Origin: a virus
Direction: 5' to 3' (one strand)
Virus record (IMG/VR): IMGVR_UViG_3300042923_001201
Location: 30,473-94,472 of that record
DNA length: 64,000 nucleotides
In this document: positions 6,814-61,764 of the stretch, one piece after another
Numbering within the stretch: the stretch's first letter is position 1
Layout: each line of letters begins with the position of its first letter
Made by a program: the position numbers and the translations under genes
Notes under the pieces: model-generated
The model's input: the letters and a program-made list of their open reading frames with translations, nothing else
Database searches by the model: none
Told to the model about the DNA's origin: nothing

Positions 6814-8007
6814 CTATTCTGATGCTTTGAAATTATATAAAGGTTTGATAATATCAACAATATCTACTGATTCTCCAACATTATCAAGAATTTCCTCAAT
6901 GGGTTTATAAGCAAATGGTGATTCATCAAGGGTACTTTGATTAACAGATGTTGTCCAAATATCTTTCATTGTATCTTTAAATTCATCAAGATTAACAAGT
7001 TCCTTTGCTTTTGATCTACTCATCAGACGTCCTGCGCCGTGAGGTCCCGAAAAATTCCAATCAGCATTCCCTTTACCTCGTGCGATAATTGAACCATCTC
7101 TCATATTAATTGGGATGATTACAATTTCTCCACTTTGAGCAGAGATCGCGCCTTTTCGCAAAATCATGTTTTCCATATCAATGTAATTATGGATTGTTGT
7201 GAAGCCACCGATTTCTGTCCAACCCATACCACTGATAATCTCTGCCATCATTGCTTTTCTACTAACTTCAGCATATTTTTGAGCAATTTTCATATCATGC
7301 ATATAGTCTTCGAAACCTTTACCTTGAAGATATGCAAAATCCTTATTTACTTTTCCTGATTTAACACTTTTAAGCATTGTTTCAATTTCAGAATGTCTTC
7401 CTTCTTTTTGTAACTTTTTAATTAGTTCATCTTTTTCGTGTTTTACACTTGTGAGTTCATCATAGGCTCGTTTTTGATAATATTCAGCAATCTGTTTTCC
7501 AAGATTACGTGAGCCTGAGTGAATTACAACTGAAATGTAACCAGAGGATGTTTCATTTACCTCAATGAAGTGATTTCCTCCACCCAATGTACCGATACTG
7601 AGTTGTGCTCGATCAAAGTTAAATGGGGCTCGAACATCTTTCAGATTGGTAATTTGTTTGGCATAATGATGAATACTTCCTCTGATATTGAAACCACTCG
7701 GAACTTGTTTGCGAATTACTTGGTCAAGTTTATCGAAGTTAATTTCATCCTTTTTAACTTCAAAGAATGAAACCTCCATTCCACACCCAATGTCCACGCC
7801 AACAAGATTAGGAACAATCTTGTCAGTGATAGTCATTGTAGTACCAATTGTGCATCCTGCACCAGCGTGAGTATCAGGCATGATGCGGATTTTAGAGTCC
7901 TTTACAAACTCCTGATTACAAAGTGAAATAATTTGACCCAGAGCGGTTTGTTCTACGTTGTCTGTAAAAATTTTTGCACTGTTGTATTTTCCATTTACTT
8001 CAATCAT
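6814..8007 (-). CDS. rtcB: RNA ligase RtcB
   Basis: MPDTHAG, GVDIGCG, GTLGGGNHFIE, HSGSR, HNY, RKGA, HGAGR, DESPxAYK. Confidence 0.95.
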   Translation of the reverse strand: MIEVNGKYNSAKIFTDNVEQTALGQIISLCNQEFVKDSKIRIMPDTHAGAGCTIGTTMTITDKIVPNLVGVDIGCGMEVSFFEVKKDEINFDKLDQVIRKQVPSGFNIRGSIHHYAKQITNLKDVRAPFNFDRAQLSIGTLGGGNHFIEVNETSSGYISVVIHSGSRNLGKQIAEYYQKRAYDELTSVKHEKDELIKKLQKEGRHSEIETMLKSVKSGKVNKDFAYLQGKGFEDYMHDMKIAQKYAEVSRKAMMAEIISGMGWTEIGGFTTIHNYIDMENMILRKGAISAQSGEIVIIPINMRDGSIIARGKGNADWNFSGPHGAGRLMSRSKAKELVNLDEFKDTMKDIWTTSVNQSTLDESPFAYKPIEEILDNVGESVDIVDIIKPLYNFKASE

Positions 8008-15313: not shown

Positions 15314-15871
15314 TTATTTTTGTGAATTTTTAATCTGACGTTCAATTTCTGCAGTCAATTTAGGTTCAGGTGCAGACCAACCTTCAGGTTTCATAATTTT
15401 ATTACCGTTCGCCGCATCATATCGAGGTTTTCCATCTTCCCAAAGTTTTGACATATTAGCATCTTGTACAATATCAAACAGTGGCTGCGGATCGGTTCCT
15501 GCAACAACAAACGAACCTTGGACAAAGTAGTTAACATCTGTAAGTGCATCCATTTGTTCTACAAGAACATTTACAACCTTGTTATCTTTTGCAATAATCT
15601 TTCTTTCTGTTTCAAATAAAGAGATTGACAATTTTCTAACAAGTTGACGAAAAAGATCGAGATCATTGTTGGCAGTTGCATAAAGGAACTCAACAAGTTC
15701 TTCAGCAGTCCATTTTGTACGAGCAAGAGCAACGTCTGTAGGAATAGCTGTAGGTGAATCGGTAACAATATGACCAAATGCTTCGTGAAAATCCTTCACC
15801 TGATCTTTAGTATAATCGAGACCCTTACGTTGAATTTTAGTTGTTGTTGTTGTTGTTGTTGTTTTAGCCAA
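15314..15871 (-). CDS. MazG-like / PRA-PH-like nucleoside triphosphate pyrophosphohydrolase
   Basis: VKDFHEAF, EELVE, DALTD..YF, ANMSK; N-terminal Thr8 run. Confidence 0.8.
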   Translation of the reverse strand: MAKTTTTTTTTKIQRKGLDYTKDQVKDFHEAFGHIVTDSPTAIPTDVALARTKWTAEELVEFLYATANNDLDLFRQLVRKLSISLFETERKIIAKDNKVVNVLVEQMDALTDVNYFVQGSFVVAGTDPQPLFDIVQDANMSKLWEDGKPRYDAANGNKIMKPEGWSAPEPKLTAEIERQIKNSQK

Positions 15872-17161: not shown

Positions 17162-18367
17162 TTATTTTCCATTTTTCATTTCCTCCACACTTTTATTAAT
17201 AAGATTATTAAAATGAGTTCCATCTTTATACTTCTGCTGAATAATAGCATCGCGCAATAGCAATCTCATTTTTGGATAGGCCCCGGGGTGAGTCTCTAAG
17301 AACTCAACTTTTTGTTTTAGTTCTTCAGGCGAGCTCACATACAACCAATCAGGTACACCGTGGTATTTTACAAGTAAACGGTCTTCATCATAGGTTTCAT
17401 GGAAGAAAGGTATAATACCATGAGCTACAGCCTCCACCCATTTCCCGCTAATGTCGCCCTTAATAATAGGATAGCAAAAAGTATATTTAACTGAAGGGAG
17501 AATAGTCTGAAGTTCATCAAATGATACCGAACCCATAAATTTGCGTTCATTGCCTTTTTGTTGAGTTTCATCCCATTTTCCATATACTTTAATATCGTCA
17601 AAGTTATTAATACAAAAATCTTGAATTACTTTTATTCTCTTCTTATCATCGTACTGGTGGAAAAAAATCGAAAATTTTTCTGTCTTCGGTTTGTTAGGAT
17701 GTTTTAATTGACTGTCAAGCAAGTATTGAGTTTCTGCTGCAGCATATTTTAACTTAACAGTATGCTCGACCATTGTAACTTGATCTTCATAGGACTTCAT
17801 ACGTTTGATTTTAACTTCACCCTCACGAACTCCCAAACTAATCTTTTCAGGATTGATCATATCTCTCGCGGGCAATGGCATGTATCGGCCATCTGATGTG
17901 ATTGTTAGCCAATTAATACGCGATTCATTAAGATAATAAGTAATGGGAGAAACATAATTAACAAGAGACATAATAGGACGCCGTATGTCTTTTGTCGGAA
18001 GTTTAGTTTTTCGGTCCAGACAAAAAATTCGACCAGGAATGGAAAGGCTACACATCCCACCGTGAATAATACCCACATCAATCTCAACATCTTTTAATCT
18101 CTCCCATACCCAAGTTGTTGGGTCATCAGTTTTAGGGTTAAAGCCTTCCCAAACATCAATTACATTCTTATTAGGAAACCACTTATCATATGTTTCTTGA
18201 TTAATTCGACTCAAATCTGACTTGCCAATCATATAGTAAATATTCTGAGGATTAAGTCGTGCAAGCGCCGATAGCAATATAGGAAATTCGTTATTTCCTG
18301 CATTGTGACCCCACTTTGTTCTATTAAAATATGAAGACCTACCAATCTTACCAATAACTATTAACAT
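17162..18367 (-). CDS. GT-B fold DNA glycosyltransferase (T4 BGT-like), GT1
   Basis: C-terminus YTFCYP..ISGKWVEAVAHGIIPFFHETYD..LYVSSPEEL parallels BGT ITLRVWE..VMLIDEEFD..FYVNNRAEL; VYGKW motif. Confidence 0.65.
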   Translation of the reverse strand: MLIVIGKIGRSSYFNRTKWGHNAGNNEFPILLSALARLNPQNIYYMIGKSDLSRINQETYDKWFPNKNVIDVWEGFNPKTDDPTTWVWERLKDVEIDVGIIHGGMCSLSIPGRIFCLDRKTKLPTKDIRRPIMSLVNYVSPITYYLNESRINWLTITSDGRYMPLPARDMINPEKISLGVREGEVKIKRMKSYEDQVTMVEHTVKLKYAAAETQYLLDSQLKHPNKPKTEKFSIFFHQYDDKKRIKVIQDFCINNFDDIKVYGKWDETQQKGNERKFMGSVSFDELQTILPSVKYTFCYPIIKGDISGKWVEAVAHGIIPFFHETYDEDRLLVKYHGVPDWLYVSSPEELKQKVEFLETHPGAYPKMRLLLRDAIIQQKYKDGTHFNNLINKSVEEMKNGK

Positions 18368-19059
18368 GCTAAACCTCCGTTTTGATTTTGAATTTTAAAT
18401 TCTAACTCTTTTTTAATAAATTCTTGTATTTCTGAGAATCTATTAATAGTCATTTCAATTTTTTCTGAAGGATAGGTTTTTTCAAATCCTTTGGGTGTTT
18501 TTAGCATATATTTAATTTTTCTAGGTGTAATTGATAAAAATTTTGTAACTACTTTCATTAGGTCCTTATCAATTGAATTAACAAAATCTTTAATATCTCT
18601 TGTTTCCCACTCTCTAAATCTAACCCAAGGATTTGCACTTCCATTATCAATTAAAAATAATCTATTATTTTTATACCCATAATTGCCTGAGTGTCTGTCT
18701 CCATTATTTATAATAATATCAAATAGTGTTAATAATTTTGATTCAGTTTTTGTCTTTGTTCTTCCATCACTATTTGCTTTATCTGCAACTATAAACTTGT
18801 CTTCCCACCAATGAACTGAACAGTATTTATTTAGTCCGAATACATCTCCCGTATTAATTAATTCTACCTTATTTGTAGGAATACCTAGTGTCTTACCTAG
18901 TCTGTAAGCAAAACATTCCATTAGTGCCTCTTCAAAGTTTTCACCTTTAATCATTACCTTTTTGTCTTCAAATTTGCCAATAACCTTTGGTGTAATTCCT
19001 CCGTGGCTCTTTCTTGCGTCATTTTTTGACAATACAACTTCGATTTTACTTGAGTCCAT
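18361..19059 (-). CDS. HipA / PI3-4-kinase-like Ser/Thr protein kinase
   Basis: MIK, E.FAYRLG..LGIP, LFD..I.NGDRHSGN, LIDNG. Confidence 0.8.
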   Translation of the reverse strand: MDSSKIEVVLSKNDARKSHGGITPKVIGKFEDKKVMIKGENFEEALMECFAYRLGKTLGIPTNKVELINTGDVFGLNKYCSVHWWEDKFIVADKANSDGRTKTKTESKLLTLFDIIINNGDRHSGNYGYKNNRLFLIDNGSANPWVRFREWETRDIKDFVNSIDKDLMKVVTKFLSITPRKIKYMLKTPKGFEKTYPSEKIEMTINRFSEIQEFIKKELEFKIQNQNGGLAC

Positions 19060-19080
19060 TTTAATCCTCCTTATAAAATA

Positions 19081-19129
19081 AAAAAATCGTTATGATAAAT
19101 TATATACATAACGATTTTTTCTGTAAACC
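19081..19129 (-). promoter_or_regulatory. Class-2 promoter overlapping a 14-bp perfect inverted repeat (terminator)
   Basis: GGTTTACA-N17-TATAAT (-35 19122-19127, -10 19099-19104); arms AAAAAATCGTTATG (19081-19094) and CATAACGATTTTTT (19107-19120). Confidence 0.75.
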
Positions 19130-19138
19130 AGGATTCAA

Positions 19139-20596
19139 TTATTTATATAACTCTTTGAAATAATTATGTTTAAACTGATTGTCATACCAATCTTTGTTAA
19201 AATGTTCAGGTTTGACATAATATTCATAGAGTTCAAAGAATAAGTCTTTATAGGCTTGAGGGTATGTTTTAGCCCAAAGTACAGCTCGCTCAATATCCTC
19301 ATTGCTGCTAACTACAAGATGATTTTTAAATTTTTTAGGAATCTGAAGGTTATCAATGTCATAGTTATCCGCAATAAGTGGAATAACCCCGTTGAGCAAA
19401 GACGAATACATACGGAAGTTCAATGAATCATACTTGCCGTAAAAACATTTAAGGATAATTGTGAATCTATAATCTTTTTGCTCTTGATGATATTCTGCCT
19501 GTGAAACAGTAGGTTTTACATTTTTATTAAGTGAAATACTTTTAATAACTTCAAATGCCTTTTCATCTTTAATCTTTTTATTTTTAAATTTCTTTGTTTC
19601 TAACGGGTCTAAAATTTCACTCTGCGTAATAGTTGAAGTTCCATCAGTTTGAGTTCTAATTGTTGCATCAACCGATAGGTCATTGAAGAATCGAGTCCAA
19701 TCATGAAGCCTGTATGAAACATCATAAGGAAAAGTACCGCCAAAAATAAAGTCATGCTTTTTCTCCTCCAAAATAGTAGATAATTCGGCTATTGTAGGTT
19801 CTTCATTTCCATAAGCGTCTTGTAATTGTGCTGATGGAAACTCATGAAAGTCTCTCATAGGGCCTCGTTTATCATCCACGAAGTAAAAACACTTAACATT
19901 TTTCGTTAAGGGATTTACTTTGGCACTAAACGGGTACCAAATAGAGCTAGTGTCGTGAGAGAATGAGTAATGCCAAAGGTCTTTGTACTCTTTCATCAAT
20001 CTTATGAGCAGGTATAAAGGGTACATATTTCGTTGACTTATCATTCTGAAACTGAAGAATTGTTGTTCGCCGTTTAGTCTTCGTTGTGCAGTTCTTAAAG
20101 CGCCCGCAGATAACTTTTCACTTTTTTCATCATAAGGAATAATTTCGTGATTCCGTTCATATACTAGGAATAGAGCAGAAGTGAGAGTACCCACAAGATT
20201 GTTAAAAATCCAAGGCTCGCCAGAAATAAGGTTAGTAAAAAGCTCTTGCATATAAGAATAAGTATGTTGAAAAGCTTTCTTATCATCATAAAACAACTCC
20301 TGTTCTCCAATTTCCATCCTCATGAATTTACCAGCGGCATCAAGATTAATATAAATACAGTCTTCAAGTACAGGAATTTCTTGTGCAGCTTCCATCCAAA
20401 CTCCTTTTGAACTTGAGGATCGCGCAATCAAAAATACATTAAAATCTTTTTTAAGTATTTTTACAGTATTAAGAATATATGAATAAGATAGGAAATTCGT
20501 TTTCTTACTAAGGTTTCGTTCAAGTAGAAATAGCATAATATTTTTCTTACCAGGAATATACTTTTTATAGTTTACAATTTCATAAGTTTTGGACAT
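19139..20596 (-). CDS. GT-B fold DNA glycosyltransferase (T4 BGT-like), GT2
   Basis: DFIFGG..R, FTIIL..SLNFRMYSSLLNGVIPLIADNYD..LVVSSNEDI matches the BGT-type C-terminal pattern. Confidence 0.6.
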   Translation of the reverse strand: MSKTYEIVNYKKYIPGKKNIMLFLLERNLSKKTNFLSYSYILNTVKILKKDFNVFLIARSSSSKGVWMEAAQEIPVLEDCIYINLDAAGKFMRMEIGEQELFYDDKKAFQHTYSYMQELFTNLISGEPWIFNNLVGTLTSALFLVYERNHEIIPYDEKSEKLSAGALRTAQRRLNGEQQFFSFRMISQRNMYPLYLLIRLMKEYKDLWHYSFSHDTSSIWYPFSAKVNPLTKNVKCFYFVDDKRGPMRDFHEFPSAQLQDAYGNEEPTIAELSTILEEKKHDFIFGGTFPYDVSYRLHDWTRFFNDLSVDATIRTQTDGTSTITQSEILDPLETKKFKNKKIKDEKAFEVIKSISLNKNVKPTVSQAEYHQEQKDYRFTIILKCFYGKYDSLNFRMYSSLLNGVIPLIADNYDIDNLQIPKKFKNHLVVSSNEDIERAVLWAKTYPQAYKDLFFELYEYYVKPEHFNKDWYDNQFKHNYFKELYK

Positions 20597-20742: not shown

Positions 20743-21252
20743 TTATTTAATCTCCTTTGTAGTTGATTTACAACATCTTAAACATCTGCTAATGGGTCCT
20801 GATTCAAAAATGGGTCCTCCACACCTACAGGTTTTAGTCTTGAACAAATCCATTAGTTCCTGGTAATCATCAACCAATGACTGTCTTCCCTGTTTTATAT
20901 ATTGCCTAATAACATCTGCCTGACAATTTTGACTTTTACCTTTAAAGATGTCATTAAAATCATCGAAACCTCTTGCATATTCAACAAGTTCAGGATTATT
21001 GTCTAAATAGTTTACCCATAACATCTTATACCATTGAGATAGAAACCTTTTATCATATCTTTTGCCATTTAATTCAATATGGGTGGGTTCTCTACCTTTA
21101 CCATCTTGCCAACCTATAGGAACAAAATCATCAAACCTTTTACAAGTTTGGTAGTGATTTTCTATGCTATCAAATCTTTTCCATGCAGTTATTTTTGCAT
21201 AAAAAGCAGAAAATCTTTTGTCACCTTTTGAAGAACATTCAAGTATCTTCAT
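20743..21252 (-). CDS. NADAR-like protein (resembles the DarT1-associated NADAR type)
   Basis: ILECSSKG..FSAF.A....SIE..YQ..K.F N-terminal motif; NCQA motif; C-terminal Zn ribbon. Confidence 0.5.
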   Translation of the reverse strand: MKILECSSKGDKRFSAFYAKITAWKRFDSIENHYQTCKRFDDFVPIGWQDGKGREPTHIELNGKRYDKRFLSQWYKMLWVNYLDNNPELVEYARGFDDFNDIFKGKSQNCQADVIRQYIKQGRQSLVDDYQELMDLFKTKTCRCGGPIFESGPISRCLRCCKSTTKEIK

Positions 21253-21635
21253 ATGTCCTCCTATATAAAATGAGAATTTTATTGCTATCATTTCCCTCTA
21301 ATTTGCTTATTAGGGCAAGTTAGAGGGAGCTAGATGAAGGTAGAGCTATTTAATCTCAACCTGAACGTCAATTTCAGCATTTTCATTAAAATAAATGGTT
21401 TTTAGGTCTTTTTCGACTTGTTTTGTAAATTCAACGAGTCTTTCATCAATTTGTTCTTGAGTTAACTGATTAAATATCTCTTTTTCTTCACCTTCGATGG
21501 GTTGAGTGACATTTACTTTAAAATAAATCTGTTTCATCTTATTTCCTCCATTTGTACAATTCGGACAATCAACAGGTTCAGCTAAAGGGCCACTACCATC
21601 TTCCCAACCACCTAAATCATTACAAAGTTTACATT

Positions 21636-22412
21636 TTACCATATGGCAATGTCCTTATCTATATTTTTAGCTTTTCTATAAGCATATTGTTGAGCCTCAG
21701 CTAAGGAATCTTTATCTCCGCAGTCAAACCATGGTGATGAAAGAAAATCAAAACTAAAACCTAAATTGTCAATATAATAATTAATTACATCTACAATTTC
21801 ATATTCGCCACGACTAGAAGGTTCTAGTCCTTCTATAATGTTCCAAACATTTCTATCGTATATTTGTACGCCACAAAACGCCAAGGATGATCCGGGAACC
21901 TCAGGTTTTTCCTCAAGACTGTGTACAGTTCCATTTAGTGGATCTTTATGTCCCCCACCCCAAAAGTTTAACACTGCAAATTTTTGAAGGTCCCTTATAT
22001 TTGTAAATTCTTTAACTGTAATAAATGCTCCACTATCATATTCATCAACAAATTTGTTAAGATCATCATATATAATATTATCTGCACAAAGAACAACAAT
22101 ATTATTATCTCTTGCAAAGTCTTTTGCCTGATACAAAGCATGAGCAACACCTTTTGGTTCATCCTGATAAAAGTATGTGAATTTACAACCATACTTTTCA
22201 CCCGACTTCAAATAGTCAATCGTTTCACCTGCTGATTTAACACCAAGTACAATTGCAATATCAGTAATTCCTGCGCTTACTAAATGCCACACTGAATACT
22301 CAATCATCAACTTGTCATAAACAGGCATCAAGAATTTGTTTGTTACATCAGTGAGAGGAGACAATCTAGTCCCTCTCCCTCCTGCAAGGATTACGCCTTT
22401 AAATTTACTCAT
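21636..22412 (-). CDS. Sugar-1-phosphate nucleotidyltransferase (RmlA-like)
   Basis: GVILAGGRGTRL.PLT, K.LMPVYDK, Q..PKG.AHA, EEKP, SSRGEYEI, WFDCG. Confidence 0.9.
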   Translation of the reverse strand: MSKFKGVILAGGRGTRLSPLTDVTNKFLMPVYDKLMIEYSVWHLVSAGITDIAIVLGVKSAGETIDYLKSGEKYGCKFTYFYQDEPKGVAHALYQAKDFARDNNIVVLCADNIIYDDLNKFVDEYDSGAFITVKEFTNIRDLQKFAVLNFWGGGHKDPLNGTVHSLEEKPEVPGSSLAFCGVQIYDRNVWNIIEGLEPSSRGEYEIVDVINYYIDNLGFSFDFLSSPWFDCGDKDSLAEAQQYAYRKAKNIDKDIAIW

Positions 22413-22999
22413 TTTTGTACCTCCACCATAATAATATCCTTGATATTAGCACGTTCTGCGGATACTCTGCCGATTTTATTATCTTCGAATACAATTACAT
22501 CTTCTCCACCCAAACCCAAAGTGTTTAGAGCAAGAATATATGGATCGGCTTCTGGTTTTGCTTTTTTAACACTTTCCTTCGTGATGATTAAAGACAAATA
22601 TTGAATAATCCCTAGTTTATCAAGAATTTGCTCAATCGAACCTCTACGTCCATTGGACACAACAGCAATTTTTCTACGACCATATTGTTGTTTGATAAGA
22701 TCAATTAAAATGGTATTGGGTACCATGTATTGATCAAGACATTGACCCAAAAACATTTTTTTGTCAGCAATGACCAATAACTTCATTGTTTCATAATTTT
22801 CATCATCAAGTAAAGACCTCATAAGGAAATCTCCACCAAATGGAGCACATGCATCAAATACTTCTTCTTTAAAAGGAATGTTATTTTTTTCAAATGCGAG
22901 TTTATATGCTTGTTTGTGACATTCCATAGTGTCAGCGAGGGTTCCATCACAATCAAAAAGTAGTGCTCGCTTGCCAATCATCATTTTTTCAAGATCCAT
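22409..22999 (-). CDS. HAD-family phosphatase (beta-PGM-like)
   Basis: LFDCDGTLAD, VVSNG, KPEADPY, VFED; RBS AGGAGG supports start 22999. Confidence 0.85.
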   Translation of the reverse strand: MDLEKMMIGKRALLFDCDGTLADTMECHKQAYKLAFEKNNIPFKEEVFDACAPFGGDFLMRSLLDDENYETMKLLVIADKKMFLGQCLDQYMVPNTILIDLIKQQYGRRKIAVVSNGRRGSIEQILDKLGIIQYLSLIITKESVKKAKPEADPYILALNTLGLGGEDVIVFEDNKIGRVSAERANIKDIIMVEVQK

Positions 23000-23327
23000 A
23001 CTAAAGTTCCTCCTATAATTTGCGCAGTTATTCTTAAAACATTTCAATTTCTTCATGGGTATACCATGAACTTGTCTACTATATTTTTCATAACAATAAC
23101 ACTTATTCATTTAAAGGTACCTAATTTCGGTAGTGCTATGTCCACCTGTCGTAGACGGAATAAAAGTTCCAATAATATCTTTTCTTTCTTTATAAACGAT
23201 ACAAACTGTAGCATAACTTATTGTATCGCCTGTTCTGTGAGAAAATTGAAGTATTTCAATATCAGGATTTTTATAAAAGAAATTGTTCATGTCATCTTCT
23301 ACGCACGACCGGCTACCACCAAAAATT

Positions 23328-24350
23328 TTAGTTTTGTACATTTTTCCATTCCTCCATAACTTGATTCAGGATTTCTATACCTATACAATAACAAATTTGC
23401 ATCGAATCAAAGTTTTCCTTTAATCTGAATGGAACCATTGAAATAAAGTGACTTGCTTCAAAAAATTTTGCCGCAATTTCCCAATTTAGTCCAACATCAT
23501 AATACTGAGGAATTACAATTTGAGCCATTTCATATAAGGTATTAAATTTTTCTACATTTCCTCGAATAAAATAGTCAACTCTATGATATTCCTCAAAAAA
23601 GTAATCACTATTTACAATATAATTCCCATCATAGATAAGATCATATTTACCATGACAAGATTGGAAAATCTTACTAATGTCATAATAAATACTGTCGGGA
23701 CCTTCTCCACGTGGGTCAATTACTTTCATATCCCAACCATCAGACAAAACATTCTGAAATGTAAAGTCTCCGTGAGATCTATACCATTTTTCTGGACGTA
23801 AAAAATTTAAAAAGTCTTGGTCGTTCGATATTTCCTCTATTAATAACCGAAGATTTTTTAATTTTCTACCGTTAATAATTAAGTAATCTTCCTCAAAAAG
23901 AGAATGATCCTTAATTTTTTCACATCTTTCAACCATCTTATCAAGATGTTTTTCTTTTATATAAGTATCTTTGTTTCCATCGTATGTTTCTGATTCAAGT
24001 GCAATTTTGGCGCCCAATGCAACCATATTGGACAGCGCCTCAAGGTGAAAATGTTCCAAGTCTTTTTCAATAAAAGTGTCTTTGAGAGTAGGCATATCTA
24101 AATATTCCATATCATAATAAGCTTTGTCCTTCTCAATAACGAACAAATTCACTTGAGGAAAAATTGATTCAGGGGAATAGTAATTAAATATCTTCATCCA
24201 TTCAAATTGGTTCTTTAATTTTTCGAGACCCAAAATATCATTATTTTTAGTGTTAACAATTTTCCTAACATAGGCTTGTTTATCTTTTACAATAAAGAAA
24301 GTTTCAGCCATTGATCCGCCTTTAAATTGTTTAATAATTTTAGCTTTCAA
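23328..24350 (-). CDS. APH/choline-kinase-fold phosphotransferase (putative sugar kinase)
   Basis: YDMEY, HGDFTFQN, IDPRG, YYDISK..QS..G.YD; TTG start behind RBS GGAGGT and the promoter at 24378-24406. Confidence 0.75.
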   Translation of the reverse strand: MKAKIIKQFKGGSMAETFFIVKDKQAYVRKIVNTKNNDILGLEKLKNQFEWMKIFNYYSPESIFPQVNLFVIEKDKAYYDMEYLDMPTLKDTFIEKDLEHFHLEALSNMVALGAKIALESETYDGNKDTYIKEKHLDKMVERCEKIKDHSLFEEDYLIINGRKLKNLRLLIEEISNDQDFLNFLRPEKWYRSHGDFTFQNVLSDGWDMKVIDPRGEGPDSIYYDISKIFQSCHGKYDLIYDGNYIVNSDYFFEEYHRVDYFIRGNVEKFNTLYEMAQIVIPQYYDVGLNWEIAAKFFEASHFISMVPFRLKENFDSMQICYCIGIEILNQVMEEWKNVQN

Positions 24351-24424
24351 TGTAGCACCTCCAAATTTATATATATCATTATATATAAATTGAATGAAGG
24401 TGTAAACCAAGATTAAAATTAATT

Positions 24425-25121: not shown

Positions 25122-25508
25122 TTACACCGCTTTATTAATGTAACCTAGGCTAGGATCTTCTTGACGTAGGATATTTATGTTGTTTTTTTCGAGGTACATT
25201 TTCATTATCGTTTTTTCGTCAAGATCAAGGAAGATAGCTATGTTTGATAAAAATATAAAAATGTCAAGAAATTCCTTTCGCCCTTCTTCAATTTTTTTTT
25301 CTAATTCTTCTTGAGTTAGATGAGAATAGTCTACCCAAGGTTTGTGAAATGGCAATTCACGAAGCATTTCATATGTTTCTTCGATAAGGAACATAGAGTG
25401 AGTATGAATGAAATTCATTCTTTCCTCAATGGACATGTTTTCGCTGAATCCAAAACGTTTTTGAAATTCAGCCTGCATGTTAAGAACTGTTTGGAACGAC
25501 TTTTTCAT
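25122..25508 (-). CDS. All-alpha dimeric dUTPase/dCTPase (T4 gp56-like)
   Basis: MQ..FQ, EETYE, KPW, KEFLDI..F, Y.EKN..N..RQ. Confidence 0.8.
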   Translation of the reverse strand: MKKSFQTVLNMQAEFQKRFGFSENMSIEERMNFIHTHSMFLIEETYEMLRELPFHKPWVDYSHLTQEELEKKIEEGRKEFLDIFIFLSNIAIFLDLDEKTIMKMYLEKNNINILRQEDPSLGYINKAV

Positions 25509-35548: not shown

Positions 35549-35796
35549 GTTTGCTCCTTAATGTATTATAGTTTTAAAAGGTTCAATTTTAAACCCAAAC
35601 CAATCTTCATATTTTTCTTCTCCCATGAAATAGTCTGTAACGTCCTTTTTATAAAGATTTCCATTGATAACCATTACAGCAAATAATCTACCACCTTCAC
35701 TCATTAGTCTGAACGTTTCCATTAAAATCACCTCCTATAAATATATTAACATAGATTCTATCAAATGTAAATAGAAAAGACCCAGAATTTTCCGGG

Positions 35797-36063
35797 TCAT
35801 TTTAATGAGTTTATAATTCCTTGAATTGTTGTTTTAGTTACAAAACCTGTTGTCCTTTCAAACGGCAACCCATCACGCTCAAAAATCAACGTTGGAACAC
35901 TTGATACACCATAGTCCGTTGCGAGACTCATTCCTTGTTCATCGTCAAGGGCCACTGTTATGAATTCAACGTCTTTGTTTTCTTTTTCAAGTTCTTCAAT
36001 GGTTGGTTTAAGTATTTTACAAGGTTGACACCATGAAGCAGTAAATCTAATTACTTTTAACAT
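35797..36063 (-). CDS. trxA: Thioredoxin
   Basis: FTASWCQPC, GVSSVPT. Confidence 0.9.
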   Translation of the reverse strand: MLKVIRFTASWCQPCKILKPTIEELEKENKDVEFITVALDDEQGMSLATDYGVSSVPTLIFERDGLPFERTTGFVTKTTIQGIINSLK

Positions 36064-36223
36064 ATTAGTTCTCCTCTGCTGCATCTAATTACTTTAGGTT
36101 GTTCAGCGATTGTAGGAACAAACAAAATTGGACCTACAAAAGCCAATATGATCATCAAACTCAAAATGTGTCCTTTCATAACGTCGCTCCTTTGGATTAG
36201 GGAGGGTTTCCCCTCCCACATGA

Positions 36224-37432
36224 TTATACTGTAAGTGCTTGTTTTTTATCTTTGACTGTATCCATTTTCTTCGTAAGCAAGAACTCTTCAGTTGTAAATT
36301 CAGTCAGTGTTTCTTTTGTATGATGCTGAAATTGAACTCGGGTATCTTCGAATTGCGTTGTGCTTTCACGTTCGCCACGAAGTGCAGCAAGGACCTCGCC
36401 GCTAGCCCATTCAAAATATTTAGCAGGTACGCCTTGAGCAAGGTGACGAATGATTTCCTTATGAGGAAGAATTTCAAAGGTGTCAGGGAATCCCATCAGA
36501 CGCGCATATTCACGAATTGTAAACTGACGATTGTGAATTGGATGAATAAATGAAGAATAACCTGTCATTGACGGCGCTTGTTTATCAGGATTAGGACGTT
36601 GCGAAGATTTATCCCAATATCCAAGGTCGTTGTTTTGTTTGTACAACTGAGTTGTCAGAGCCTTTTTAACTTTTTCTGGCAGAGTTGGCTCATATTTTGC
36701 GTAATTGTCACAGATTACCCAGTTTACAGTTTTGTGTCCACCTTTTACGAATGGTACATCAGGGAAGATATATTCGACTTCTTGATAAGGACGATTGGGA
36801 ACAAGATCATGATTCAAAAACGTTCCAAGTTCTACATCATACAAATCTCCAATAATTTCCTTAACTGTCGTTGGGACATCTGTTTTGCCCATGTGAAGTG
36901 TAGGAATTTGAGGGAAAGCATCTTTGCGCCATCCAATAAAGAATGTCCGTTGACGTTTCATTGCCACATTATGGTACATACCAAACTCACGAATGATCGT
37001 AAAGTTGTAGTTTGGCAGGTTCTTAATGAAATCATCAAGAATCGGTTTACCTGTAGTGATCAGTGTTGGAGCATTCTCGTACATAAACGCTCGAGGTTGA
37101 ACGCCTTTAACAATGTTCATATACCGATATTGATGACAGTTTGGACCCTTTTCATGAGATTGTCCACCGCGTACACCCAGAGAAAGCCCTGAACATGGCG
37201 GATTACCATAAAGCAAATCATAATTTTCTTGACGAAGTTTTTCAAGATATTTGCTATTTTCCCATACAGAAGGGGGAACCATAGGAACTTGAGGATAGTT
37301 ATGAACAAAGTGCATTCCATTGTCTAAATACATGTCGTCCGTTAGCTCCAAAATTTGAGTAGGTGTATACCCGTTATTCATTACACCAATACTTGCGCTA
37401 CCTGCAAAAACAAATGCCCCTAATACCTTCAT
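36224..37432 (-). CDS. C5-cytosine DNA methyltransferase fold with atypical SAM-binding motifs
   Basis: Catalytic motifs present (GNPPCSG, YENAP, KRQRTF, REYARLMGFP); motif I is AFVFAGSA and motif X is LAQGVP. Confidence 0.8.
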   Translation of the reverse strand: MKVLGAFVFAGSASIGVMNNGYTPTQILELTDDMYLDNGMHFVHNYPQVPMVPPSVWENSKYLEKLRQENYDLLYGNPPCSGLSLGVRGGQSHEKGPNCHQYRYMNIVKGVQPRAFMYENAPTLITTGKPILDDFIKNLPNYNFTIIREFGMYHNVAMKRQRTFFIGWRKDAFPQIPTLHMGKTDVPTTVKEIIGDLYDVELGTFLNHDLVPNRPYQEVEYIFPDVPFVKGGHKTVNWVICDNYAKYEPTLPEKVKKALTTQLYKQNNDLGYWDKSSQRPNPDKQAPSMTGYSSFIHPIHNRQFTIREYARLMGFPDTFEILPHKEIIRHLAQGVPAKYFEWASGEVLAALRGERESTTQFEDTRVQFQHHTKETLTEFTTEEFLLTKKMDTVKDKKQALTV

Positions 37433-37731
37433 TAATTAATTCCTCCATTTTTGTATTGTTCTACTAGACTTTCAAGATTTTCAAAATCAACAGTCCAACC
37501 ATAATTTAGAATGCTGACCATAGGATTGGTTTTCAATCCTAACTCATCATTATATTTATCTTTAAAATAATCAATCTTTTCTGTAATTTCATCACAAAAG
37601 TTAACAATTAGTTCAGGTTTCTTTTTATTAGGCAAATTCATAACAACGCCAATATATCCAACTTTATATTTTGATTTTCGTTCGAGAAAAGTGATGAAAT
37701 CTTCTTTTGGTGTAGTACATTTTTCATTCAT
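37432..37731 (-). CDS. Conserved hypothetical phage protein
   Basis: PELIVN..KIDYF..KYNDEL motif; tightly packed between the TS homologue and the MTase fold. Confidence 0.55.
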   Translation of the reverse strand: MNEKCTTPKEDFITFLERKSKYKVGYIGVVMNLPNKKKPELIVNFCDEITEKIDYFKDKYNDELGLKTNPMVSILNYGWTVDFENLESLVEQYKNGGIN

Positions 37732-38760
37732 TTATTTACCTCCTATTGTTTTTAATTGTAAGGCATAACTTCTATATTCATTAGTAATATAAGGAAGGAA
37801 CGCTTTAAACTCTCCTTCATTTGCACCTAATTTTCTATAATTATACATTACAATCAAAGCAATAACAGATCTCCACCAAGAGTTTTCAATATTTTCAATT
37901 GAAATCATAAACACATCAAGCAACGCATCAATTTGAGCCTTTTTATAAGTTCTTGACGCATGTTCAAGAAGAGCAATTTTTGACATTAACCCGTTAAAAC
38001 CATCAAGGGACACAAGTGGTGAGCCATAATCAATATCTTCATATGTTTTGAAATCTGATTTAATCAGGTTTTTAAAATATTCTATATCAGATTCATAAAT
38101 ATGAAGTGACACAGCAGTATGAGTATATTTTCCAACATCAATGCCCAACCAACCCGCAATAACATGCTGAAACATAATAAAGTTAGGGATGTCATAGATT
38201 GCACCTTTGTGCAAATCATTACTTCTCATAGCGACATACATATTAAGTTTACCTTCACGAACTGTGAAGTTAAAATAGTTCGTACAAGGAATATCTTTAG
38301 AGTAATTTCCATTTTCATGGATATAATTATCTCGGTCAGGATCAAAAATAACCATTGAAGCTTGACGTGAAAATGGGTCATTTTTCAATTTTTTATAAAC
38401 TTCAAAGAATTGATCAATTTCACCATTCCAATTTCGCAGACGTTCACCATAAGCGCCATTTAAAATGCCAGGTTCATCTTCGTCCTCAAAGTTTCGCCAA
38501 TTTGCATTATAATGAGCAATTTCATCAAGATTGTTTGAACCTCTTAACATCCATAGTGCCTCAGCTAGTTGGAAAGTATGGTTGCCTCGACGTCCCGTAG
38601 GAACTGTTAAAAATTTTCGAGGATTAGTAATAACAATAGTAGCAGGGCTCAACTCAAGTGTTTTTGACCCACGGGGTGCAACCTCAACCCCATGAGCCAA
38701 AATTTCTTCAGCGGCCTTTTTATATACTTCATCAAAAGATTCTCCAATGATTAAGTGCAT
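37732..38760 (-). CDS. Thymidylate-synthase-fold dCMP hydroxymethylase-like enzyme
   Basis: AYG.R, DPFSRQA, KDIPCT, MRSND...GAIYD (Asp at the TS Asn177 / T4 gp42 Asp179 position), SLHIY. Confidence 0.8.
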   Translation of the reverse strand: MHLIIGESFDEVYKKAAEEILAHGVEVAPRGSKTLELSPATIVITNPRKFLTVPTGRRGNHTFQLAEALWMLRGSNNLDEIAHYNANWRNFEDEDEPGILNGAYGERLRNWNGEIDQFFEVYKKLKNDPFSRQASMVIFDPDRDNYIHENGNYSKDIPCTNYFNFTVREGKLNMYVAMRSNDLHKGAIYDIPNFIMFQHVIAGWLGIDVGKYTHTAVSLHIYESDIEYFKNLIKSDFKTYEDIDYGSPLVSLDGFNGLMSKIALLEHASRTYKKAQIDALLDVFMISIENIENSWWRSVIALIVMYNYRKLGANEGEFKAFLPYITNEYRSYALQLKTIGGK

Positions 38761-38808
38761 ATCGGACCTCCATCGTTTTGTTTGATATATCATTATACAT
38801 AGAAAATT

Positions 38809-39306
38809 CTACACTGTGAACAGAGTTTGTAATATTTTTTCTACATTTTCGTCAATATTCTCGTCAGTATTAATTGTGATTTTTGGCAAAGTAGAGTCTT
38901 TGTATATTTCCTCAATCTTATTATAACAATAATGAAAATGCTCGGGTTTTACAAAATCTTCGCCTCGTTCAGCGATTCTCTTGATGATCGTTTCAAACGG
39001 AGGTTGAAGGTGTACAAGAAGGACATTAAACTTCTCGATTAGTATTCTCTCGAGGTAAGGAAAATAGTCTGCCTCATATCCACGATAGAGTGGAGCATAT
39101 ACTCGCTCACCTTCGAAAAATCTATCCTTAATTACTGAATAATCATTATCCTTAATACTATTCAAATATTCTAACTTACCATCAATATATGATTTTACAG
39201 GGCCGTGGTGTTCAATTGGAAAACCTGTTTTTTCACTGAGAGCATTAGCGATAGTGGACTTACCGGCTCCATCAGAACCGATAAGTATAATGAAATTATT
39301 TTTCAA
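38809..39306 (-). CDS. Deoxynucleoside-monophosphate kinase (thymidylate-kinase-like)
   Basis: GSDGAGKST, DRF, RIAERGE. Confidence 0.8.
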   Translation of the reverse strand: MKNNFIILIGSDGAGKSTIANALSEKTGFPIEHHGPVKSYIDGKLEYLNSIKDNDYSVIKDRFFEGERVYAPLYRGYEADYFPYLERILIEKFNVLLVHLQPPFETIIKRIAERGEDFVKPEHFHYCYNKIEEIYKDSTLPKITINTDENIDENVEKILQTLFTV

Positions 39307-55824: not shown

Positions 55825-57594
55825 CTATGCCTCCAAATTTGATAGTAAAGTAGCTCGAATATCACTCAATTTCTGATCTACAAGTAGTTTACCATCTTCA
55901 AATACAGGTTTAAGTAAATCAATACTTTCGGACCATCCTTGCTCCTTAATTGTAAATCCATCATGATACTCAATATTTCCATTTTCTTCATTATTATATA
56001 CAACAACTCTACCTTTTTGTGAGCGTTTTAGTCCGTTATCCGTTTTAGGATCTTTAAATAGGAACTTTTCTTCATTATTGATTACCGCATGAGTGGCCTT
56101 CATAGCAAATCCGAAGGTATCTCGAGTGTTATATTGATAAGTAAAGGAACCAATGCCTAGCACTACATTTGTTGAAGCAAATCCTTTTGCTTTCAAACGC
56201 TTGCAAATTTCTTCCGCGCGTTCAAGTGTGATGGAATCTCCATAAATTGCACCGATATGAGTGTCGAGTAATTTATAACCTGTTTCAGTAATTGTACCAC
56301 CAAAAGTATTCCATAATGACTCAATTAAACCAAGTTGTTGAGCAGTAGGTGTAATTTCTTCAATTGATGTAACTCTGTGTCCGTCAATAAAGTAATACTG
56401 TTTGTCATATCTATTCCAATCAATTTCAACTTTTGCCTTAAAATACTTGTCTTTATATTTAAAGGTTCCCTCTACTTCATGATCTCCGTGTTCGCCATGG
56501 TCTGTTTCACTACGAACCTTATCTACAAGGATGTCTTCTACCCAATCTTTAATTTGATAAATTAGTTCCCCATCCTCTTTGACATATTTTTCAAAGCGAG
56601 TAAGATCCTCAATATCTTCACCACAAAGAATTTCTACAGGGTCTCCCGAATCAGGTCTAATTACCACTCGTCCATCTCTACTTGTAATTTCATTTTTGAG
56701 TGAAGGAATTACATTTTCTACAATGTTCCAAAAATCCCATGTATCACTTACTACAGAAAAGAATCCAGTAGGATAGATTTCCTGCATAAGTTTACGGATT
56801 ACTTCACGTTCATCCTCATTGCCATTCGCACACATAACTGAGTGTTCAGTTGCAGGAATAGAGGTTCCTACAAGTTCTGTCTCAATGTTAGCATTGTAAT
56901 ATTCCTCGAGATACAAGATTGCAGGAATTGTATCTGTTCCAACGAAAGACAAAAGGTGAGCTGCACCAGAGGCTTTAGTGGCATCCAATCCTGCCATACC
57001 TCTCATAGAGAAGTCATGTCCTTGGAAAGGAACTGTATCAGCATTACCAACTGTTTCAATCGCATATTTTTGCAATATTTTGCGGTATTGGAAGGCAATA
57101 GTTGCAGAAGTCATTGGCAACCAAACAAGGTTGGATATCAAAGTTTCAAGGTAATTTGTAACCCAGAAAAACTCATCTTTAGTATTTTCAATTGTAAAAG
57201 CAGGTACACGAATAGGTACAAGTGTTCCTTCAGGTATAGCTCTAATAAGAACAGGAAGTTTATTATAGTCCCACAATGCTTTAATATGAGAAGAATCGGG
57301 ATTTTCTACACCTAAAGTATGTTTGATTACTCTTTCATACTCTCCCTGTACATCTACCCAATGACGATTAAAGAAATTTTCATTAAAATAATCAATAAGA
57401 AATTCTTTAATAAATGCTTGAAGTCCGAACATTACAATCTTGTCAATTCCTTTAATTCGACTTCCCCTCGGCGTCCATGTACTATAAACCTGTTGAGTAC
57501 CTGTAGGATACTGCTCCCGGTGACTGACCTTATAAAAGTCGCAGAGAAGTGATGCAGGAAAAGCGATACGATTAATACGATTAACAGTTTTCAT
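55825..57594 (-). CDS. NAMPT-like nicotinamide ADP-ribose transferase (Namat, NARP1)
   Basis: DFYKVSH..QYP, HDFSMRG, GTD, PATEHSV, VSDTWD, RPDSG, IYGDSI, GIGS, TRDT, KDPKTD. Confidence 0.9.
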   Translation of the reverse strand: MKTVNRINRIAFPASLLCDFYKVSHREQYPTGTQQVYSTWTPRGSRIKGIDKIVMFGLQAFIKEFLIDYFNENFFNRHWVDVQGEYERVIKHTLGVENPDSSHIKALWDYNKLPVLIRAIPEGTLVPIRVPAFTIENTKDEFFWVTNYLETLISNLVWLPMTSATIAFQYRKILQKYAIETVGNADTVPFQGHDFSMRGMAGLDATKASGAAHLLSFVGTDTIPAILYLEEYYNANIETELVGTSIPATEHSVMCANGNEDEREVIRKLMQEIYPTGFFSVVSDTWDFWNIVENVIPSLKNEITSRDGRVVIRPDSGDPVEILCGEDIEDLTRFEKYVKEDGELIYQIKDWVEDILVDKVRSETDHGEHGDHEVEGTFKYKDKYFKAKVEIDWNRYDKQYYFIDGHRVTSIEEITPTAQQLGLIESLWNTFGGTITETGYKLLDTHIGAIYGDSITLERAEEICKRLKAKGFASTNVVLGIGSFTYQYNTRDTFGFAMKATHAVINNEEKFLFKDPKTDNGLKRSQKGRVVVYNNEENGNIEYHDGFTIKEQGWSESIDLLKPVFEDGKLLVDQKLSDIRATLLSNLEA

Positions 57595-58445
57595 TAATTG
57601 AATCCTCCCAATTTATAAACTTTTAATTGTTCTGTTTCTTCATGGTGTCTAACAAAGAAATCTTTCGTGTCAAGAATACTGTCTGTTGTATAAACTCTAT
57701 CAATTAAATCTTCCTTAAAAATTGAACCTTTAAAAATAGAATCTTCACAATGAGCAACAAGAAGATAAATATACTCAAAACCATTCTTATAAAGTTCTTT
57801 GGCAGATCTTGTGAAAGTTCCTCCGTAAGAACAAAGATCATCAATAATAATCACTTTTCTGTTAGGTTTGTATTCAGGAACATTACCTACAATATCCAAA
57901 CCTTCAATATTTCCCGTTTCCCAATTTCTTTTCTTAAATCCAACAAGTTGATTATGACCCGGAATATCATACCGTTTTTGAGCACCTGCATCAGGAAAGA
58001 AAATATAATCTTTCTCAATATCAAAGTCAATATCTTTCTTTACCCATTTAAGAATATTATAATTAATATTTTTGTTATCACATCTGTCAATAAGTGCAGG
58101 AGTAACATCAGAATGCGCTTCATGAATATTTACTTCAGCAAAATTAAGTGAATTAATAAATTCGGCGATGTATTTCAAAGTAAATACTGAATCATTTACA
58201 CTCCTGTCCATTCTACTATAAGGTACATAAGGACAATACAATATAATATCTTTAACACCTAACGAATCAAGATGTTTTTTAATAATCATCAGATGAATAA
58301 GATCTCTATCATCTTCGAACCTAAAGTGAATAATATTTACATCATCTTCAAAAGTGTAGATATGTTTGTTAATTGAGTCTTCAATCTTTGATTCTTTGTT
58401 CGGAAATTGTGAAATTTCAACCTTTTTTCCATTAAGCCAGATCAT
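57594..58445 (-). CDS. PRPP-synthetase-like ADPR-PP synthetase (Adps, NARP1)
   Basis: FPNKE, YVPYSRMDR, HSD, FPDAGA.KRY, IIDDLCSYGGTF; coupled to the NAMPT-like gene. Confidence 0.88.
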   Translation of the reverse strand: MIWLNGKKVEISQFPNKESKIEDSINKHIYTFEDDVNIIHFRFEDDRDLIHLMIIKKHLDSLGVKDIILYCPYVPYSRMDRSVNDSVFTLKYIAEFINSLNFAEVNIHEAHSDVTPALIDRCDNKNINYNILKWVKKDIDFDIEKDYIFFPDAGAQKRYDIPGHNQLVGFKKRNWETGNIEGLDIVGNVPEYKPNRKVIIIDDLCSYGGTFTRSAKELYKNGFEYIYLLVAHCEDSIFKGSIFKEDLIDRVYTTDSILDTKDFFVRHHEETEQLKVYKLGGFN

Positions 58446-60897: not shown

Positions 60898-61764
60898 ATG
60901 TCATTTCAAGTATTAGGAATAGACCCAGGCAACTATAAAACAAAAATAGTTCATGAATCTGGTTTGGATCAGTTTCTTAGTCCGATTGGCGAATGGCGAA
61001 AAAGAAATGCTGGTGAAAGTCACTCAAAGTTAGATATGGAATTTGAAATTGTAAACAAATACGATTCATTCCGTGGATTTTGTGGACCTCTTGCAAGTAT
61101 TGAATCTGAATATGGTGGAACAGTATTCGGCTCTACAAAAAATCATATCGACGCAAAGACAAGAACTCTTTTAGCAATTCATCGCAATTTACAACAACAA
61201 GATGTAAAGATTGTAGTTGGACAACCTTACAAAGGTCATACTGATACTGAAAAGGAAGAAATTATTAGTAGTCTTATGGGTGAGTGGACTGTAACCATAA
61301 ATGGCAATAAGAAAGAATTTGTTATATCAGATGTCTCTGTTGGTATTGAAGGAGCAATGGCATTCTTATCTGCACCATTCTCAGGACCCGTCAATATTAT
61401 AGATGTAGGTAGTGGTACTGTAAACTGCATACATTTTAATGATAAAAGAATAGTAGATTTAAGATCAGATACTTTACTATTCGGTTCCGAAACTAATAAG
61501 GATGGTGTTAACTTTGAGGGAATGGCGAGTGGTATATTCAAAGGTATGAGTGCAAGGTGGAATAAAGATCACCCTACCTTTGTATGTGGTGGTACTGCGA
61601 AGGATATGGTTATGCCACTTAAACGATATTATAAATCTGCTGAGGTCCTACCATGTCGTGCAAATATAAATGGCATAAAGATATCTGTTGATGTTGAATA
61701 TGCTAATGCGGTAGGAATGTATATTGCAGGAGTAAAGAACTATGCCAAACTACAAGTCAGTTAA
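60898..61764 (+). CDS. parM: ParM/StbA actin-like partition ATPase
   Basis: GIDPGNYKTK, VGQP, IEG, IDVGSGTVN, CGG, ANAVG. Confidence 0.9.
   Translation: MSFQVLGIDPGNYKTKIVHESGLDQFLSPIGEWRKRNAGESHSKLDMEFEIVNKYDSFRGFCGPLASIESEYGGTVFGSTKNHIDAKTRTLLAIHRNLQQQDVKIVVGQPYKGHTDTEKEEIISSLMGEWTVTINGNKKEFVISDVSVGIEGAMAFLSAPFSGPVNIIDVGSGTVNCIHFNDKRIVDLRSDTLLFGSETNKDGVNFEGMASGIFKGMSARWNKDHPTFVCGGTAKDMVMPLKRYYKSAEVLPCRANINGIKISVDVEYANAVGMYIAGVKNYAKLQVS

Follow-up and report, generated by a model that had tools for sequence, protein, structure and literature searches.

A phage-restricted clade of DNA cytosine C5-methyltransferase-like proteins with a rebuilt donor pocket, encoded alongside predicted 5-hydroxymethylcytosine genes

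Introduction

The 5-hydroxymethylcytosine (5hmC or hmC) pathway of phage T4 comprises a dCMP hydroxymethylase (gp42), a kinase (gp1), a dCTPase (gp56), and alpha- and beta-glucosyltransferases, and has no component resembling a DNA cytosine C5-methyltransferase (C5-MTase). Under the T4 paradigm, complete replacement of C by hmC leaves a plain C5-methylase without a substrate in phage DNA. Here, we describe a viral genome in which a C5-MTase-like gene, a new element compared with T4, lies in one operon with a homolog of thymidylate synthase (TS) that bears a dCMP-hydroxymethylase signature. The stretch analyzed, hereafter the window, is 64,000 nucleotides long and spans positions 30,473 to 94,472 of IMG/VR virus record IMGVR_UViG_3300042923_001201. 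The original prediction, made from the letters of the window, credited the C5-MTase-like protein with an intact catalytic core and eroded motifs for S-adenosylmethionine (SAM), and proposed that it may erase or couple groups to hmC or use a non-SAM donor. We find that the protein belongs to a conserved, phage-restricted clade that is distinct from ordinary C5-MTases and has gp301 of Bacillus phage G as a member (the gp301 clade).

The closest described enzymes are canonical C5-MTases such as M.HhaI, M.HaeIII, and the protein of prophage CP-933R (PDB 3g7u). A precedent for natural re-tooling of the C5-MTase donor pocket is CmoX (PDB 8yf3), a phage DNA cytosine C5-carboxymethyltransferase in which replacement of the motif X Asn changes the group transferred (PMC12783734). 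In CmoX, the position of M.HhaI Asn304 is taken by Arg350, which contacts the carboxymethyl group when carboxy-SAM (Cx-SAM) is bound; an R350N mutant took neither Cx-SAM nor SAM (PMC12783734). Other phage C5-MTases are coupled to TET/5mYOX enzymes and neighbor a Tet_JBP dioxygenase, and broad-specificity phage C5-MTases are also known (PMC8256090). Phage G has two diverged alpha-glucosyltransferase homologs, which were already known (PMC6024577, PMC13216743). When we searched the literature on the clade, on phage G DNA modification, and on modification in cyanophage S-TIM5, no paper on a gp301-type enzyme was found.

Results

The protein keeps the C5-MTase catalytic residues and replaces those of the donor pocket

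The C5-MTase-like protein matches Pfam family PF00145 (E value 1e-20) over residues 65–326 only; motif I is therefore not recognized by Pfam. Foldseek searches with an AF2 model (pLDDT 91.6) returned only C5-MTases, namely 3g7u, M.HaeIII, MET1/DNMT1, CmoX, and M.HhaI, with E values from 1e-13 to 4e-17 for the canonical enzymes, and the class-I MTase fold has its target recognition domain (TRD) between motifs VIII and IX. The motif IV Pro-Cys nucleophile (Pro79-Cys80), the motif VI Glu (Glu119-Asn120), the RxR of motif VIII (Arg160/Arg162), and motif IX are all retained, so that every residue used to attack C6 covalently and to activate the ring is present. Motif I, at residues 6–16, reads A-F-V-F-A-G-S-A-S-I-G, and further motifs are NPPCSGLS, YENAPT, MKRQRT, TIREYARLMGFPD, and LAQGVP. 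The 402-amino acid translation thus bears out what the original prediction had read there: a C5-MTase fold with PC, ENA, and RxR kept, AFVFAGSASIG as motif I, and LAQGVP as motif X.

Compared with canonical C5-MTases, the fold, the order of motifs IV, VI, VIII, IX, and X, the Pro-Cys, Glu, and RxR residues, and the placement of the TRD are the same, whereas the residues of the pocket (Phe9, Ser12, Ser81, Ala121, Met158, and Gln333-Gly334 here) are replaced. In motif I, the canonical F-x-G-x-G-G becomes F-x-F-x-G-S (F7-V-F9-A-G11-S12), the first Gly being replaced by Phe and the third by Ser. PCQ becomes PCS, ENV becomes ENA (Ala121 for Val), and QxRxR becomes MxRxR, with Met158 in place of the Gln that precedes the two arginines. 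Motif X, canonically G-N-x-V-P, reads A332-Q333-G334-V335-P336. Two further features set the clade apart from the canonical enzymes: a conserved C-terminal tail of about 50 amino acids with the sequence FQHH, and its restriction to phages that have a TS homolog of the hmC type.

The register behind these comparisons equates F7 with M.HhaI F18, F9 with G20, G11 with G22, S12 with G23, S81 with Q82, A121 with V121, M158 with Q161, and Q333 with N304. It was obtained by profile-profile alignment (hhalign) to 11 canonical C5-MTases (E value 3e-43), and agrees with profile alignments to CmoX 8yf3 and to 3g7u and with the secondary structure of the AF2 model, which has a strand at residues 3–6, a loop at 7–11, and a helix from residue 12. 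An alternative register of motif I, with F9 at M.HhaI F18 and G11 at G20, as in the F-x-G-x-A-T of DNMT3, is disfavored by the three alignment methods and by the strand and helix boundaries of the model.

The protein resembles CmoX in being a phage C5-MTase fold in which the motif X Asn is replaced (matches of about 1e-8 to 1e-17), and Gln333 aligns with CmoX Arg350 in the profile alignment to 8yf3 as well as with M.HhaI Asn304. It differs from CmoX, which has SPPC and an Arg at the Asn304 position (PMC12783734), in reading NPPC and Gln333 there and in lacking the first motif I Gly. CmoX depends on a phage CmoA; a search for CmoA (TIGR00740) gave no match in the 100%-complete genome of the window, while the same search found CmoA in other genomes. 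The dioxygenase family Tet_JBP (PF12851) had no match in the genome, in a search whose control was positive nowhere, and was absent among the Pfam-scanned open reading frames (ORFs). The motif II residue Glu29 is invariant in the clade, and since the same Glu binds the cofactor ribose in CmoX and M.HhaI, binding of an adenosyl-type ligand may have been preserved. At position 7, where adenine would stack, F, Y, or M is found.

The altered pocket is conserved across a phage-restricted clade

Searches returned more than 120 clusters (90% identity) that are 36–88% identical to the query. At E values below 1e-30 there were 29 representatives (50% identity), with ordinary MTases scoring no better than about 1e-20. 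In an unfiltered alignment of 30 sequences spanning the same identity range, G11, S12, E29, P79, C80, S81, E119, N120, M158, R160, R162, Q333, G334, V335, and P336 are invariant, and F9 is nearly so. The same positions are also invariant in a larger set of 166 distinct sequences, which has F9 in 157/161 and A121 in 160/166; because this set was filtered on QGVP and PCS, the invariance of those two motifs within it is circular. The TRD can be aligned across the whole clade (mean pairwise identity 33%), and ESM Atlas neighbors are 97–100% viral (viral PF00145 clusters only). The sole cultured member in the phage collection is phage G gp301, annotated as "DNA cytosine methyltransferase," which is 45% identical to the window protein and carries the same motif changes. 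No fused or longer form of the protein was found at E values of 1e-20 or below, although this is weak evidence.

Comparison with three relatives gave dN/dS values of 0.09–0.21. Because the substitutions are invariant across homologs and dN/dS is this low, we conclude that the donor pocket has been rebuilt under purifying selection and is not decaying; the term "eroded," used in the original prediction for the SAM motifs, does not hold. In two related contigs (L017:10196-11185 and L018:10313-11185), the gene is seemingly in short pieces, perhaps because it is frameshifted, is a pseudogene, or was misassembled.

The neighboring TS homolog carries a dCMP-hydroxymethylase signature

Among proteins of solved structure, the best relative of the window TS homolog is MilA, a CMP 5-hydroxymethylase (3.6e-29), thymidylate synthases reaching about 1e-16. 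In TS homologs, N177D marks cytosine specificity, L143D/E a hydroxymethyl product, and D169N a 5-hydroxycytosine synthase (PMC13326640). The window protein reads K-D-I-P-C and R-S-N-D-...-G-A-I-Y-D (KDIPC ... RSNDLHKGAIYD), and so combines the catalytic Cys with L143D, a retained D169, and N177D. By this signature it is of the dCMP-hydroxymethylase type, in agreement with the activity that had been predicted for it. The nearest phage matches include SPO1 gp29, but a dUMP hydroxymethylase was rejected on account of N177D, and a 5-hydroxycytosine synthase was rejected on account of the retained D169.

In five loci of clade members, the TS homolog and a dNMP kinase are fused into one ORF of about 435 amino acids (Table 1). 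The window genome additionally encodes ThyX and thymidine kinase (TK). Two genes are candidates for clearing dCTP, a MazG/PRA-PH-type NTP pyrophosphohydrolase and, as a weak second, a dUTPase_2 protein.

The clade is linked to hmC and glycosyltransferase genes

Homolog loci were drawn from viral, metagenome, and genome collections, and counts were made on 23 non-redundant loci, each flanked by 5 kb or more in both directions. PCS and QGVP were found in every full-length family match, and [FY]xF[GACST]GS in most. A TS homolog with Asp at all three positions D143, D169, and D177 (D/D/D) lies within 10 kb in 13/23 loci. Alpha-glucosyltransferases of Pfam family AGT are present in 6/23 and beta-glucosyltransferases of Pfam family BGT in 3/23, T4-type enzymes that the relatives thus share with the T4 pathway. 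Altogether, a TS homolog or a T4-type alpha- or beta-glycosyltransferase (GT) is found within 10 kb in 18/23 loci, compared with 0/6 ordinary-MTase control loci from the same scans. Homologs with the same motif changes are therefore strongly linked to TS or GT genes, and the lack of linkage that would have spoken against the original prediction is not what the loci show.

Two of the five remaining loci, in 416-kb and 504-kb records, belong to genomes that encode a D/D/D homolog elsewhere, in addition to a canonical thymidylate synthase of the L/N type. A 178-kb record and phage G (gp319) likewise have a D/D/D homolog elsewhere in the genome along with a canonical TS. All near-complete genomes with a clade member, phage G included, have a TS homolog of the dCMP-hydroxymethylase type. 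Like the window genome, phage G combines its D/D/D homolog with the sugar gene trio gp309–311, and it also has two T4-like alpha-GTs (gp306 and gp313); the gp301 gene, however, lies 13 kb from the TS homolog gene, whereas in the window the two share an operon. We conclude, on the strength of this gene content, that the clade belongs to a predicted gene set for pre-replicative, usually glycosylated, 5-hydroxymethylcytosine.

A larger sister clade shows the same association

A second group of C5-MTase-like proteins, made up of the next-best relatives and with the motifs PLIGG, PC[AS]GLS, ENAP, PQxRxRT, and QNVP, is homologous to the gp301 clade across 357 columns that include the TRD and the tail (E value 4e-47). 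It is far larger, with 370 viral matches against 19 for the gp301 clade, and has been found in cultured phages, namely S-TIM5-group cyanophages and Pseudoalteromonas phage XG4. Both clades have ENAP, a Gln at the position of M.HhaI Asn304, and, where canonical motif I has its first Gly, a bulky residue. In the sister clade, however, the motif II Glu is replaced by Ser, PQxRxR is kept, and Asn follows the Gln of motif X.

In 26/80 sister-clade loci, a D/D/D TS homolog is present within 8 kb, and an NDP-sugar epimerase/dehydratase gene is adjacent in 56/80; many loci also share the phrog_21938, HAD-hydrolase, and nucleotidyltransferase genes of the window and have an aminotransferase and a GT. 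With this linkage repeated in the sister clade, we conclude that the tie between the C5-MTase-like superclade and genes for hmC and sugars is old and general. Unannotated ORFs of 421 and 249 amino acids recur in 56/80 and 47/80 of the sister-clade loci, respectively.

Genome setting

The virus record is 94,472 bp long and 100% complete (CheckV), the window being its final part. Structural genes on the plus strand occupy the first 30 kb of the record, before the window, and a long minus-strand block within the window contains genes for replication and nucleotide metabolism. In order of transcription, these encode ribonucleotide reductase, DnaB, primase, RecJ, the dNMP kinase, the TS homolog, a 99-amino acid ORF, and the C5-MTase-like protein, and then a small ORF, a thioredoxin-like protein, two topoisomerase II subunits, and a PolIII-alpha-like polymerase. 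By polymerase comparison, the closest cultured relatives are Geobacillus phage GR1 and SEP9-like staphylococcal siphoviruses. A soil metagenome was the sole sequencing run that contained the phage DNA and is probably its source; no RNA run was listed as containing it.

The kinase and TS-homolog genes are separated by 15 nt, the TS-homolog gene abuts the 99-amino acid ORF, and that ORF overlaps the C5-MTase-like ORF by 1 nt. The tight packing of this unit had been noted correctly in the original prediction, which also ended it with the C5-MTase-like gene and a terminator immediately beyond. A hairpin does exist at that place, but it is not followed by a T-run and a terminator scan gave no call. 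Co-directional genes, the small ORF and the thioredoxin-like gene, continue to a canonical terminator-like site further downstream (Table 1), so the C5-MTase-like gene is not the last of its unit.

The remaining sugar genes of the window lie on the minus strand. A trio that would supply an NDP-sugar is shared with phage G, and a GT-B-fold protein is a GT candidate, T4 BGT having the highest TM-scores among its top structural matches (TMt 0.58–0.64). PDB sequence searches with the 401-, 485-, and 360-amino acid proteins of the sugar module gave no match. Taken together with the TS homolog, the adjacent dNMP kinase, and the all-alpha NTPase candidates, the BGT-like GT-B protein reproduces much of the T4 pathway, and we infer that the window genome is equipped, much as T4 is, to make hmC DNA that is glycosylated.

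Between the GT-B gene and the trio are genes for a HipA_2-like kinase (a weak match) and for the 485-amino acid protein, which is without a family match; a homolog of the latter with 35% identity adjoins a nucleotidyltransferase in another locus (L006). The same block contains a NADAR domain protein of the DarT1-associated antitoxin type (E value 1e-9), which could be an anti-DarT counter-defense gene.

Elsewhere in the window, genes for a tyrosine recombinase (Phage_integrase, E value 8e-9) and for an actin-like protein (ParM/ALP) give a hint that this phage, whose DNA is predicted to contain hmC, may be temperate or live as a plasmid prophage. Other genes encode a fusion of a GH26 (mannanase-type) glycosyl hydrolase with a PA14 domain, located beside an M15 peptidase gene and possibly a depolymerase or lysis accessory, tandem NAMPT/NAPRTase-like and PRPP-synthetase-like proteins (NAD salvage), and an RtcB RNA ligase.

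Table 1. Positions of the features discussed, in window coordinates unless a locus handle is given
Feature	Position	Strand	Remarks
C5-MTase-like ORF, phage G gp301 clade, 402 aa	36224..37432	-	PF00145, motifs, AF2 model
99-aa ORF, phrog_3915, no assigned function	37432..37731	-	only in close relatives (L003), not family-wide
TS homolog with dCMP-hydroxymethylase signature	37732..38793	-	KDIPC = L143D; RSND = D169 kept; GAIYD = N177D
dNMP kinase, thymidylate-kinase-like	38809..39306	-	directly upstream of TS homolog
GC-rich 7-bp hairpin just 3' of the C5-MTase-like stop codon	36199..36217	-	GGGAGGG-GAAA-CCCTCCC, without T-tract
Small ORF between C5-MTase-like and thioredoxin-like genes	start 36178	-	ribosome-binding site and ATG at 36178
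Thioredoxin-like gene	35797-36084	-	co-directional, downstream of C5-MTase-like ORF
First canonical terminator-like site downstream	35779..35798	-	8-bp stem and T-run, after thioredoxin-like gene
MazG/PRA-PH-type NTP pyrophosphohydrolase, candidate dCTP-clearing enzyme	15314..15871	-	family match
dUTPase_2, weak second dCTPase candidate	25122-25508		E 1.6e-4
GT-B-fold glycosyltransferase candidate	17162..18367	-	T4 beta-glucosyltransferase among best structural matches
HipA_2-like kinase and 485-aa protein	18361-20596	-	between GT-B gene and NDP-sugar trio
NADAR domain protein	20743-21291	-	inside sugar/GT block
NDP-sugar supply trio: phrog_21938 protein (weak APH-like), HAD hydrolase, sugar-1-P nucleotidyltransferase	21636..24410	-	common to phage G gp311/gp310/gp309
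Tyrosine recombinase	2078-3052	+	Phage_integrase
GH26 glycosyl hydrolase fused to PA14	3092-4546	+	beside M15 peptidase
RtcB RNA ligase	6814-8007		
NAMPT/NAPRTase-like and PRPP-synthetase-like tandem genes	55825-58445	-	NAD salvage
Actin-like ParM/ALP protein	60898-61764	+	
TS-kinase fusions	L010:1663-2985, L014:3509-4822, L017:7526-8824, L018:7505-8824, L019:7411-8724		other loci
Sister clade sources	viral contigs L091-L170; phage records OP053361, JQ245707 (S-TIM5), PP712099		

Discussion

Substitution of hmC for C would remove the normal substrate of a C5-MTase, and the residue changes of the clade cluster around the transferred group and the C5 substituent of the base. For these reasons, action on 5hmC and chemistry other than methylation are suggested, and the window enzyme probably does something other than plain methylation. 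What it does instead can be put forward more tentatively. In the gp301 clade, and probably in its sister clade too, the covalent C5-MTase mechanism may be used for non-methyl chemistry on 5hmC or C in DNA, a proposal that we regard as plausible while rating it short of likely. Such chemistry might, with similar reservations, be the replacement of the hydroxyl by another nucleophile, or the removal or installation of a one-carbon unit. In the version that we favor, as a working idea and with limited confidence, the 5-CH2OH substituent of 5hmC would be exchanged or removed via an exocyclic methylene intermediate. According to this scheme, the enzyme would act on phage DNA after replication and flip out a cytosine-type base, and Cys80 would attack C6 of 5hmC (or of residual C). 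At a subset of sites, the hydroxyl would then be swapped for another nucleophile, or the group removed. The rebuilt pocket would hold the CH2OH group and a co-substrate, and an adenosyl-type ligand may still fill part of the old SAM site, at Glu29. The in vitro precedent to which the original prediction appealed is present in the literature, where C5-MTases remove the hydroxymethyl group weakly (PMC11347137).

Several points weigh against exchange or removal at 5hmC. Glu29, together with an aromatic residue or Met at position 7, fits continued SAM binding, and DNMT3-type enzymes tolerate Ala and Thr at the second and third Gly of motif I. The dCTPase candidates are weak, and C may not be fully replaced by hmC. 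T4-type GTs use the same hydroxyl of 5hmC, which would oblige any further enzyme that consumes 5hmC to be selective for certain sites, and a cofactor-making enzyme was not seen among the conserved neighbors of the homolog loci. The argument that an eraser would suit lysogeny, advanced in the original prediction, is weak despite the tyrosine recombinase gene, because replication of a prophage by the host would dilute hmC without any eraser.

Some of these points favor an ordinary SAM-dependent DNA m5C MTase with odd motifs I and X, which would serve as a back-up by methylating C not replaced by hmC. We consider this somewhat unlikely. Such an enzyme would be expected to keep the fold, the catalytic residues, and Glu29 for ribose binding, all of which are present, and broad-specificity phage C5-MTases are known (PMC8256090). 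The weak dCTPase candidates would leave it a substrate, and the tyrosine recombinase and ParM-like genes make a C-DNA prophage or plasmid stage possible. Its targets, on a more specific version that we likewise rate as rather doubtful, would be residual dC or the C-strand of host-replicated prophage DNA after induction, which it would shield from attack by host restriction systems or by nucleases that the phage itself directs against C-DNA. However, an ordinary MTase would suffice for such work, which does not call for invariant replacements of two otherwise invariant residues, the first motif I Gly and the motif X Asn (at the position that decides the transferred group in CmoX), or for a change of ENV to ENA. 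The sister clade additionally lacks the motif II Glu, and none of the six ordinary-MTase loci shows the TS/GT linkage. Transfer of a non-methyl group from a modified SAM-type donor to unmodified cytosine, in the manner of CmoX, would account for Gln333 at the Arg350/Asn304 position (PMC12783734), for the retention of Glu29, and for CmoX being among the top structural and sequence matches. It seems improbable, given NPPC instead of SPPC, Gln instead of Arg, a 100%-complete genome in which CmoA was not found, and no conserved donor-making neighbor in the loci, and it leaves the exclusive linkage to the hmC pathway unexplained.

C5-MTases also add aldehydes to C in vitro, and a DNA-level hydroxymethylase that patches stray C to 5hmC, with formaldehyde or methylene-tetrahydrofolate instead of SAM, would fit both the hmC linkage and a rebuilt donor pocket combined with the retained machinery for attack on C6. 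Such an enzyme would duplicate the nucleotide-level pathway and is without precedent in vivo, and no folate-binding-like element was identified in the protein; we regard it as distinctly improbable. In the T4 paradigm, hmC phages must tell C-DNA from their own, and SAM-starved C5-MTases deaminate C in vitro. A SAM-blind C5-MTase could thus be a weapon against host C-DNA, deaminating C to U or trapping it covalently while hmC phage DNA is spared. This purely inferential idea is very unlikely: no linked uracil-DNA-glycosylase inhibitor or matching nuclease was found, and nothing in the conserved TRD or tail points to such a role. That motifs I and X are off consensus could, finally, be taken literally as erosion, leaving a decaying or purely DNA-binding pseudo-enzyme, but this is scarcely credible in view of the conservation of catalytic and pocket residues across 166 sequences, the dN/dS range, and the high-confidence AF2 model.

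Phage DNA hypermodification has repeatedly yielded new enzymology and tools, as with T4 BGT, phage TETs, and CmoX. The clade defined here comprises about 166 distinct sequences, and the viral matches of its sister clade number in the hundreds. In the clade, the machinery that activates cytosine is intact while the donor pocket is rebuilt, and members occur only alongside a predicted pre-replicative hmC or glycosyl-hmC pathway, in which a plain C5-methylase would have little role. The cultured representative of the clade, gp301 of Bacillus phage G, makes the question directly testable. If new chemistry on hmC is the true activity, phage DNA would contain a new cytosine derivative, and the recurrent "methyltransferase" annotation in hmC phages would be explained. 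A sequence-specific tool to label or erase 5hmC might follow. The "atypical" reactions of C5-MTases in vitro would then have a physiological counterpart, and phage cytosine hypermodification would have a new, post-replicative branch.

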